64,000 nucleotides of DNA from sequence record PV654397.1. The stretch is one strand, 5' to 3'. Each line of letters begins with the position of its first letter. Within the stretch, counting starts at the first letter, position 1. Of the stretch, positions 32,400-32,945 are shown in pieces. The notes below the pieces were generated by a model, which saw nothing but the letters and a program-made list of their open reading frames with translations, was not told where the DNA came from and made no database searches. The stretch is from Escherichia phage WPEC5. A program made the translations under genes and the position numbers.

Positions 32400-32945
32400 G
32401 CATGTCTAATTCGACGAAAGTACTATGATTTGTTTTAATTAATATTGACGGGGTTTGCTTGAGCATATTTCATCCCCCCGCAGGGGAAAGAACAAAAAAA
32501 AGTTTGACGCTGGTGGCCTTCACATAGTTCATATCACGAATTCTCTTACGAGGCGAAAGCGGGTTGCTCTGTTTCTCTCTATCGCGGTTCTTGTAGCAAC
32601 GGTCGTCGGTCTTAAACATCCCGACACATAATACAAATACCATATGACCAGTACTTGTATTTGATTTCACGAATTTTGGACGCAACTATATTGTATAAAT
32701 TACGACCGCAAATTTCTCATGAAATCTCCCTTAGATAATTGGTAAGGTGCGATCCTTATATGTCTATCGAGGAACTCTCTTTATCCTATTGGAGTTCTTT
32801 ATACAGCCGCATTGCCGTGAGTGGTTCAAACTATGCCATCATCTAACGGGTTTCATTTGCTGTTCGTACTGAAAGGACTACTCATCTACCCTCTACTTTT
32901 CGAGTGGATTAGGCTTTAATCATTTCCATATGGAACCTTTCAGGA
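32400..32945. other. GC-richer non-coding island (candidate structured RNA or regulatory region)
   Basis: About 550 bp without a convincing ORF, visibly higher GC than surroundings; several stems and a perfect 12-bp palindrome TTCCATATGGAA near 32,920. Confidence 0.4.

Follow-up and report, generated by a model that had tools for sequence, protein, structure and literature searches.

What is encoded by the approximately 550 bp that precede open reading frame (ORF) 31782-32378 in Escherichia phage WPEC5 (PV654397.1)? The window analyzed here is a 64,000-nt stretch of this phage, and the locus in question (positions 32400-32945) lies between that ORF and ORF 33010-33858. A reading made from the letters of this stretch (the sequence-only reading) had noted a GC-rich, palindrome-bearing gap and offered three explanations, a structured non-coding RNA, a replication or regulatory region, or the decayed remnant of a horizontally acquired element. 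The first is now strongly supported. Covariation among homologues, a dedicated promoter, the lack of a conserved ORF and a conservation above that of the flanking genes indicate that the region is the gene for a large structured, pseudoknotted non-coding RNA predicted on the minus strand.

Composition, conservation and coding potential of the locus

The gap is GC-richer than the rest of the window, as first described. Positions 32400-32945 contain 40.5% G+C compared with 33.6% for the whole window, and rank within the highest 1.6% of 546-nt sliding windows. Over 2.2 kb surrounding the element, identity was 99.6% with Escherichia phage Ecwhy_1 and 88% with the type phage 121Q, and the phage of the window is an Asteriusvirus-type jumbo phage. 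Compared with 121Q, the RNA core was 97.2% identical, while the flanking genes were 82-86% identical. Compared with GAP32, the core retained 71% identity over 488 nt, whereas the neighbouring genes gave only 29-58-nt fragments or no match.

The same DNA showed no sign of a conserved reading frame. Among 27 homologous copies, no column of the RNA-sense strand lay under an ORF of at least 25 amino acids (aa) in 80% of the copies, and on the other strand the same conserved DNA was read in all three frames in different copies. The lack of a convincing ORF had been remarked before and held: the 71-aa ORF with a TTG start (32470-32685) was not conserved among homologues, and a conserved protein-coding gene was found in none of the 27 copies. 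A small ORF after the Shine-Dalgarno-like AAGGGAG was likewise not conserved upon inspection of the alignment.

Covariation and consensus fold

The fold of the window copy taken singly was moderately better than that of shuffled sequences (z = -2.6), and the case for a structured RNA therefore rests on the comparison of homologues. Alignment A2 comprised 27 distinct full-length copies in RNA sense, 58-100% identical to one another. Its RNAalifold consensus was refined and supplemented with two pseudoknots obtained from a search for covarying stacks, giving 106 pairs in 20 helices and 2 pseudoknots, with compensatory changes at 63 of the 106 pairs. Pairing was possible in 95.0% of the alignment cells, compared with 79.7% after column shuffling and 38-46% when partners were slid by 1-3 columns. 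The covariation score was 0.414 versus 0.144 for shuffled and at most 0.085 for slid pairings, and none of 500 shuffles reached it. More than 130 columns were invariant among the 27 copies.

The 3' domain could be aligned more widely (alignment A3, 32 sequences <93% identical, including a divergent second clade and chromosomal copies described below). Here 94.8% of the cells were paired, 32 of 42 pairs showed compensatory changes, and covariation was 0.595 compared with 0.206 after shuffling. A covariance analysis across related phages had been proposed as a check, and it came out in favour of the stems, with compensatory pairs beyond both the shuffled and the slid controls. By its compensatory base pairs and the absence of a conserved frame the element belongs among structured non-coding RNAs, and with ~540 nt, 20 helices, 2 pseudoknots and many invariant unpaired positions it has the characters of an ornate large RNA.

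Known RNA families did not account for the element. Rfam 15 at gathering thresholds (4,227 families, among them GOLLD, ROOL, OLE, HEARO, raiA, group I/II introns, RNase P, 6S, tmRNA and riboswitches) gave 0 matches in the whole window, and at E <=10 the region showed four sub-threshold matches, the best being L20_leader with 17.8 bits against a threshold of 58.7. ARAGORN found no tRNA or tmRNA in the window. A group I or II intron was discarded as the flanking ORFs are complete separate genes according to the 121Q and GAP32 annotation, no intron model matched and BLAST showed no intron-less allele. A ToxI-like type III toxin-antitoxin RNA was set aside, with neither tandem repeats nor a toxin-like neighbour, and hammerhead-like GAUGAG/CGAAA motifs were dropped as no ribozyme model matched. 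No prior description of this RNA was found in the searchable full-text literature. A catalogue of 10,006 viral structured-RNA candidates contains motifs of <=151 nt only and lists [quoted passage not shown] (PMC10690425); fragments of this RNA may be included there.

A multi-copy family in jumbo phages

BLAST of the element against 50,697 phage records gave matches in 61, exclusively from jumbo phages of ~350 kb that infect Escherichia, Salmonella, Erwinia, Yersinia, Serratia, Cronobacter, Pectobacterium, Klebsiella aerogenes and Xanthomonas. The carriers form a clade of T4-related jumbo phages consisting of Asteriusvirus, Mimasvirus and relatives. Outside the genus of the window phage, identity was 67-76% over ~480 nt with 4-5 matching places per genome, and family members were ~480-570 nt long. 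A whole-genome search of 121Q gave exactly four paralogous copies, 60-71% identical to one another:

192.7-193.4 kb: copy A, orthologue of the window copy
326.6-327.2 kb: copy B, between the endonuclease VII and baseplate-hub genes
90.3-90.9 kb: copy C, just after the phage sigma-factor gene
247.4-248.1 kb: copy D

These copies were more evenly spread than expected by chance (P ~0.05), and the positions of the paralogues were conserved. Within each genome examined all copies pointed in one direction, that of most transcription. The 64-kb window contained no further copy besides its own A copy. The sequence-only reading named the repeats of the locus correctly and missed the promoter, the strand and the multi-copy family.

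Motif scans extended the family. A first motif was too strict for viral contigs (12 loci); a second gave 43 loci, from which 10 chance matches were removed by nhmmer, leaving 33 genuine copies from roughly twelve jumbo-phage genomes or genome fragments. In metagenomes, a two-block motif recovered 48 loci, none of them a chance match, and among these was a divergent second clade on phage contigs of ~43% G+C. The 5' half of this clade has diverged while the 3' half is conserved, and one member is syntenic with copy B, beside baseplate-hub and portal genes; no cultured phage carrying the second clade was found. Two direct-repeat motifs of the main clade, (A/C)UCGUCAG, were both replaced by ACGAAG in the second clade, and this concerted replacement suggests a shared partner. 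The CGUCA-containing motif was not enriched in the window.

The family is not universal among relatives. RaK2 has 365 nt only at the syntenic site, a covariance model (R1) found no homologue at the syntenic loci of RaK2, Vibrio phage 2.275.O and PA5oct, and no Pseudomonas or Vibrio phage matched in the BLAST search of the phage records. A 1.5-kb ORF-poor stretch lies between the baseplate-hub and RusA-like resolvase genes of PA5oct (NC_071039, ~75.7-77.2 kb), syntenic with copy B; it contains no homologue by the model and is not among the four listed non-coding RNAs of that phage.

The surroundings of the paralogues varied. Downstream of B-type copies the genes are convergent, none is co-oriented, and a bidirectional terminator closes the unit, which consists of promoter, ~0.7 kb and terminator. 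Many other paralogues are followed by co-oriented genes with ribosome-binding sites, and these downstream genes differ (ADP-ribosylglycohydrolase-like, methyltransferase and unrelated hypothetical proteins, judged from their translations).

Promoter and transcribed strand

A promoter was recognized just upstream of the element in the window:

33007-33012, minus strand: -35 element TGAGAC, overlapping the TGA stop (33010-33012) of the upstream ORF 33010-33858
32984-32992, minus strand: extended -10 element TGATATAAT (TG at 32991-32992, TATAAT at 32984-32989)

From the promoter spacing, transcription of the window RNA is predicted to start at about 32976-32978. Where the upstream sequence could be read, almost every copy had the hexamer TG(A/G)(A/G)AC ~17 nt ahead of TATAAT, the exceptions being 121Q copy D (CGGGAC) and one other copy (TGGATC). 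TATAAT was present in every phage copy with a readable upstream region and was preceded by TG in nearly all; the island copy of an Enterobacteriaceae metagenome-assembled genome (MAG) has TATACT in its place. The promoter class is written TG(A/G)(A/G)AC-N17-TGnTATAAT, and by this signature the predicted promoter, on the gene strand, is of the "divergent RpoD-like" (middle-type) class. Such promoters, with a -35 of TGAAACG and a classic -10, were described in CBB and GAP32, and 11 of the 18 in CBB precede a block of ORFs in which DNA-synthesis genes are numerous (PMC5259590).

The pattern occurred 19 times on the gene strand of 121Q compared with ~5 expected on both strands together. Some of its sites precede genes for single-stranded DNA-binding protein, primase, exonuclease and late sigma factor, and the class is also found ahead of replication and nucleotide-metabolism genes. 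Searching the window with TG(A/G)(A/G)A(C/T)-N16-18-TATAAT gave five more matches on the minus strand (3439, 17787, 20009, 23619 and 55630) and one on the plus strand (8790). The 2 kb without annotated gene at 135,194-137,161 of 121Q contain one promoter-class match, at 135,736.

Because of the conserved promoter, and because of the wobble restricted to covarying pairs, the RNA is assigned to the minus strand of the window. Wobble intermediates in covarying pairs fitted the minus strand in 70 cells and the plus strand in 35; the unrestricted count in helices predicted on both strands was 46 versus 57. Several helices contain invariant G-U pairs or U-G to C-G exchanges, which would be A-C mismatches on the plus strand, and the internal hairpin followed by U6-7 in most paralogues is also oriented for the minus strand.

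Anatomy of the window copy

The proposal of a ~550-bp non-coding gap was sound as far as it went. The feature is larger, adding the promoter (32984-33012) and a 3' hairpin (32382-32415). Along the minus strand, 5' to 3', the following parts were distinguished:

32953-32981, then U7 at 32946-32952, minus strand: terminator-like hairpin between the -10 and the RNA body, in A-type orthologues only
32442-32978, minus strand: predicted structured RNA body, ~537 nt, with conserved core 32442-32945
32869-32943, minus strand: 5' domain, closed by helix 1 (32943-32936 with 32876-32869)
32912-32902 with 32893-32886, minus strand: helix 2, within the 5' domain
Helices 4-10, minus strand: central domain
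32803-32863: region of helix 4 (32863-32859 with 32807-32803), enclosing helix 5 and a variable insertion
32772-32797, minus strand: helix 6 hairpin, compensatory changes at 6/6 pairs, <=4 Watson-Crick pair types per position
32631-32660, minus strand: helix 11 hairpin (32660-32649 with 32642-32631), whose loop 32648-32643 enters pseudoknot 1
32602-32627, minus strand: helix 13 hairpin, 4/5 pairs compensatory, 98% paired in A3
32535-32600, minus strand: most conserved core, with pseudoknot 2 and helices 15, 16 and 17
32600-32596 (GUUGC) with 32567-32563 (GCAAC): pseudoknot 2, 100% paired, 3/5 compensatory
32586-32582 with 32539-32535: helix 15, 100% paired, 4/5 compensatory
32579-32575 with 32559-32555: helix 16
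32553-32549 with 32546-32542: helix 17, 4/4 compensatory
32528-32533, minus strand: 3' strand of pseudoknot 1, pairing with the helix 11 loop 32648-32643
32494-32501, minus strand: U8 run, remnant of the internal terminator-like hairpin and U-run of most paralogues (A2 columns 604-627)
32442-32486, minus strand: 3' conserved tail, with the helix 20 hairpin CCCC-UGC-GGGGGG (32486-32475) and motif CAAACCCCGUCAAUAU
32382-32415, minus strand: 16-bp hairpin, an inverted repeat, 88% complementary, just before the next gene

The palindrome and the inverted repeats singled out earlier were all present in the window where they had been placed, and they correspond to parts of this fold:

32924-32935: palindrome TTCCATATGGAA, tip of the variable apical hairpin of the 5' domain
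32563 (GTTGCT) and 32595 (AGCAAC): pseudoknot 2
32605 (GTCGG) and 32621 (CCGAC): helix 13
32772 (GAACTC) and 32792 (GAGTTC): helix 6
32474: CCCCCC-GCA-GGGG, helix 20, a C-rich/G-rich hairpin

Four of these five elements go beyond chance, being helices that co-vary across homologues. The fifth, helix 20, showed C-G to U-G changes only, which are one-sided; the 3' tail to which it belongs is nearly invariant and likewise displayed only such changes.

The minus-strand terminator noted earlier was confirmed as a stem (32953-32981) followed by T7 (32946-32952). Its 12-bp stem with 5 G-C pairs and the T7 agree with an intrinsic terminator. The sequence of this hairpin differs among the window, 121Q, GAP32 and three further loci (L004, L008 and L009), while it always pairs and is then followed by U6-7; it is kept across genera with compensatory changes, and needs G-U pairs on the minus strand where the plus strand would have C-A. 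The predicted start site lies inside its 5' arm, so that transcripts from the RNA's own promoter may miss the bases that close the stem at the U-run, whereas transcription reading through from the upstream gene would terminate there. The terminator expected to end the upstream gene (ORF 33010-33858) sits downstream of the -10 of the RNA.

Compensatory changes were detected at 7 of 8 pairs in helix 1 and at 6 of 8 pairs in helix 2. The apical hairpin of the 5' domain has a different sequence in every paralogue but is retained as a hairpin. Helix 4 was 100% paired with 3 of 5 pairs compensatory; helix 5 (32849-32843 with 32819-32815) was also 100% paired and invariant except for U-A to U-G changes. 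A sub-module of ~28 nt, GUACAA-N5-AUCCGUCYAAAAUU, was observed as an optional insertion in helices 10 and 17 of different paralogues (A2 columns 342-380 and 513-548), for example in 121Q copy D and at 32670-32715 of the window; it has the look of a module for structure or binding that can be reused.

Both pseudoknots lie in the 3' domain (32660-32528), the most conserved of the RNA. Helix 11 showed compensatory changes at 10 of 12 pairs, and its invariant G-U pair and U-G to C-G exchanges fit the minus strand only. Pseudoknot 1 was compensatory at 6 of 6 pairs and 98.9% paired in the 32 sequences of A3, with second clade and chromosomal islands included; shifted by one column, which serves as negative control, the pairing fell to 28%. 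Motif GAGAAACNGNNNNACCCGCUU of the conserved core was present in all family members recovered by the scans. Of the 27 copies, 20 had helix 19, the internal hairpin, with compensatory changes at 5 of its 6 pairs and always with U6-7 behind it; this helix is deleted in A-type and C-type copies.

The hairpin at 32382-32415 probably belongs to the RNA and may mark its 3' terminus or serve in processing; the inner portion of the hairpin, CAUGC-GAA-GCGUG, is similar to a covarying CAUUC-GAA-GAAUG found 3' of other copies. In copies outside Asteriusvirus a conserved module 40-170 nt 3' of the core consists of GAAUUGAG, a hairpin, CGAAAAUUCUUUGACA, this covarying hairpin CAUUC-GAA-GAAUG and GCAAAUC. 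It includes a perfect TTGACA, and may represent either a promoter whose spacer is structured or the RNA's 3' end. Gene 416 of 121Q, the orthologue of the downstream ORF 31782-32378, is annotated into the 3' hairpin. The GTG start of this ORF (32378) is probably over-extended, as the public call for the identical protein is an ATG at 32372, and AGGAA-ATG is present further inside.

Copies in bacterial chromosomes

Among 5,426 complete E. coli genomes, two contained the element intact and at full length (nhmmer 432 bits), with 80% identity to the B-type copy of a Serratia phage and with a phage-type promoter, TGGGAT-N-TGATATAAT, in front. The copy is part of an island of ~10 kb inserted at ffs, which encodes an integrase split by IS3, hypothetical genes, a resolvase and the candidate defence system PDC-M45 (DuOB, DUF488, mSLOG-DUF4326). 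PDC-M45 is located at 14997-16728 of the island locus of strain LR-29-1, and its DUF4326 protein is 41% identical to a 121Q homologue encoded at 231.1-231.4 kb. The unannotated DNA flanking the RNA copy of this island (11266-11696 and 12544-13259, the same in the second locus) is rich in GTAC/AGTACT without called genes, and may hold further non-coding elements.

A more divergent copy was found in the Enterobacteriaceae MAG, between thiM and a gene for a CI/LexA-like repressor, with the promoter TGAAAC-N17-TATACT. The scan of species-representative genomes contained one true copy among the 120 matches listed; as chance matches were numerous there, the count of bacterial carriers is a lower bound. 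The plasmid collection contained no copy, and a comparison of the island loci with Rfam gave the TPP and SRP families only, neither of them at the element.

Possible functions of the RNA

We give about an even chance to the RNA being a trans-acting stable RNA or RNA-protein particle, folded and made together with the replication-gene regulon. It would be transcribed in early to middle infection from its phage-class promoter, would fold compactly into ~20 helices with two pseudoknots and many invariant junction nucleotides, and would then act in trans as a stable RNA or ribonucleoprotein, comparable to GOLLD, ROOL and OLE and to the ORF-less transcripts that are abundant in ICP1 and PA5oct, and not as a simple antisense or leader RNA. 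This is proposed because invariant unpaired nucleotides and pseudoknots are typical of RNAs with a tertiary fold, because B-type copies are self-contained and have no gene to regulate, and because abundant large non-coding transcripts are known in other lytic phages.

Several points weigh against this proposal. No transcript data were found in the literature on this phage clade, and expression, ends and abundance are inferred. The genes beside the copies differ, and no partner protein or target was identified. A-type copies, including that of the window, have a terminator-like hairpin between the -10 and the RNA body, and there is no terminator before the downstream gene, so that the window copy could equally be an mRNA leader. 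The conserved and fairly even positions of the paralogues (P ~0.05) would suit a cis function at each locus. Two further observations, an invariant GNRA-like loop (GAAA/GGAA) on the plus strand and a predicted long-range helix 7, otherwise unsupported, with plus-type wobble, favour the opposite strand but are outweighed.

A bolder form of the proposal, which we regard as speculative and unlikely in its entirety, is that the RNA represents a new class specific to jumbo phages, ribozyme-like or self-assembling, whose 4-5 paralogues would join into a hetero-oligomeric machine, of RNA alone or of RNA and protein, on which infection depends; this might act, for instance, on the host expression apparatus or on phage DNA metabolism. 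Bacterial defence islands would then have captured a copy to sabotage or sense this machine.

Among the alternatives, RNA-primed replication origins survive best, as an unlikely but live possibility. At each copy a structured transcript from the middle-type promoter would form a persistent RNA-DNA hybrid, be processed and prime the leading strand, and a copy in an island would let the replication machinery of an infecting phage amplify that island. Transcripts of ColE1 (RNA II) and of the T4 origins oriF and oriG prime replication by way of an RNA-DNA hybrid, and we presume that the length of the present RNA and its G6/C4 element are reminiscent of RNA II. A replication or regulatory region had also been suggested at the outset; it stands as a less supported rival, the points in its favour being copy number, spacing and promoter class. 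The four copies of 121Q are spaced more evenly than chance (P ~0.05) and share one orientation, as in each genome, and the same promoter class is found before replication genes. T4-like UvsW, UvsX, UvsY, RNase H and a gp41-like helicase are annotated in the phage records examined, whereas no origin is annotated there, and the islands of E. coli and of the Enterobacteriaceae MAG, which are integrative, keep intact copies with a phage-type promoter. However, T4-type origins need no conserved fold of 500 nt, and the invariant junction nucleotides and two pseudoknots exceed what is known of primer RNAs. The internal hairpin and U-run of most paralogues would release the transcript and not keep it in a hybrid, and the related phage RaK2 is without a copy at the syntenic locus. 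The cumulative GC skew of 121Q showed no inflection at any copy and follows gene orientation only, so that it speaks neither for nor against origins. If the copies were origin-primer RNAs, they would reveal where replication begins in this jumbo-phage group, whose origins are so far unmapped.

Somewhat more doubtful is a cis-acting leader, a long structured 5' region controlling transcription or translation of the downstream genes as a processive antiterminator or as a ligand- or factor-sensing attenuator. The put RNAs of HK022 are processive antiterminators. The window RNA runs without a terminator to the next gene, behind which lies the Dam methyltransferase operon; most paralogues have a terminator-like hairpin and U-run in the conserved region, many are followed by co-oriented genes with ribosome-binding sites, and A-type copies have an extra terminator right after the promoter. 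These features would fit a leader, but B-type copies meet convergent genes and a bidirectional terminator and have no co-oriented gene behind them, paralogues differ in their downstream genes, and unrelated sequence follows the island copies. A length of 500 nt with two pseudoknots is also far above that of known leaders of such type.

A counter-defence or decoy RNA is improbable. The phage RNA would mimic or neutralize an RNA of a host defence island, as phage pseudo-ToxI RNAs neutralize ToxN, or the island copy would poison an RNA-dependent process of the phage. The position of the E. coli copy at ffs beside PDC-M45, integrase and resolvase, that of the MAG copy beside a CI/LexA-like repressor gene, and the phage-type promoters retained by both are consistent with such a role. 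On the other hand, host carriers are rare (2 of 5,426 E. coli, one among the 120 species-representative matches listed, no plasmid), whereas in the phage clade the RNA is universal and multi-copy; ToxI-like tandem short repeats are absent, and no gene is consistently adjacent.

Finally, a protein-coding gene, a pseudogene or a decayed horizontally acquired element retains hardly any probability: mechanical ORFs (the 71-aa TTG ORF and a 58-aa ORF at 32455-32631) and "hypothetical proteins" annotated here in several GenBank records speak for it, but these ORFs are not conserved and their frame differs among copies, indels are not multiples of three, substitutions are compensatory in helices, and the element is more conserved than the real genes beside it. 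Since no frame is conserved and conservation exceeds that of the flanking genes, the protein-gene and decayed-remnant readings were both rejected, the latter also because relatives carry the element at the same locus as the most conserved DNA of the neighbourhood.

Comparison with known RNAs, origins and promoters

To our knowledge, large intricate RNA classes of bacteria and phages are few, comprising ribosomal RNA, RNase P, group I and II introns, OLE, GOLLD, ROOL, HEARO and raiA, and each has either revealed new biochemistry or stays an open puzzle. Harris and Breaker reportedly reviewed the "ornate large" non-coding RNAs of bacteria and phages in 2018. The present RNA is experimentally tractable in cultivable E. 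coli phages such as 121Q, PBECO4, phAPEC6, Sharanji and many others. Its layout is unusual for a non-coding RNA, with four to five old paralogues that keep their positions and each follow a replication-class promoter, and the rare host islands with a copy beside candidate defence genes tie the RNA to phage-host conflict. Many GenBank records wrongly annotate "hypothetical proteins" across the element.

The transcript predicted here resembles those of ColE1 RNA II and T4 oriF/oriG in its replication-class promoter, its length of ~0.5 kb and the several copies of the same orientation per genome, and the phage encodes RNase H and T4-like replication proteins as in that setting. Unlike those origin transcripts, its fold is far more elaborate and conserved, and most copies contain an internal terminator-like element. 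The promoter shares the TGAAACG-like -35 and classic -10 of the "divergent RpoD-like" promoters of CBB and GAP32; those were listed upstream of ORFs (PMC5259590), whereas here the promoter lies ahead of an ORF-less conserved element.

Abundant ORF-less transcripts have been reported in other lytic phages, an RNA of ~800 nt between gp139 and gp140 of ICP1 (PMC7567579) and ncRNA001-004 of PA5oct (PMC7318152), the latter phage being a distant relative of this clade. Like them, the present element occupies a large intergenic stretch of a lytic phage, which in their case gives discrete non-coding transcripts. Those RNAs were defined by RNA-seq and not by a conserved structure, whereas this RNA was defined by structure and conservation; neither the covariance model at the PA5oct locus nor BLAST indicated homology between them.

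A close likeness is also with GOLLD, ROOL and OLE, for which cryo-EM structures and oligomerisation have been shown (PMC12286853). The present RNA shares with them the 500-800 nt class, many covarying helices, pseudoknots and invariant unpaired nucleotides, the association with phages or prophages, and the lack of a known biochemical function at discovery. It differs in having no match to their Rfam models (noise only at E <=10) and in not lying beside tRNA genes. GOLLD, ROOL and OLE come from Firmicutes prophages and from rumen and lake metagenomes, whereas this RNA is found in virulent jumbo phages of Gram-negative hosts, where a genome has 4-5 diverged paralogues and every paralogue a phage-type promoter of its own. 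The kind of object, a large ornate RNA associated with phages, is known; within the limits of our searches, what is new is the family itself, its arrangement as several paralogues and its occurrence in host islands.

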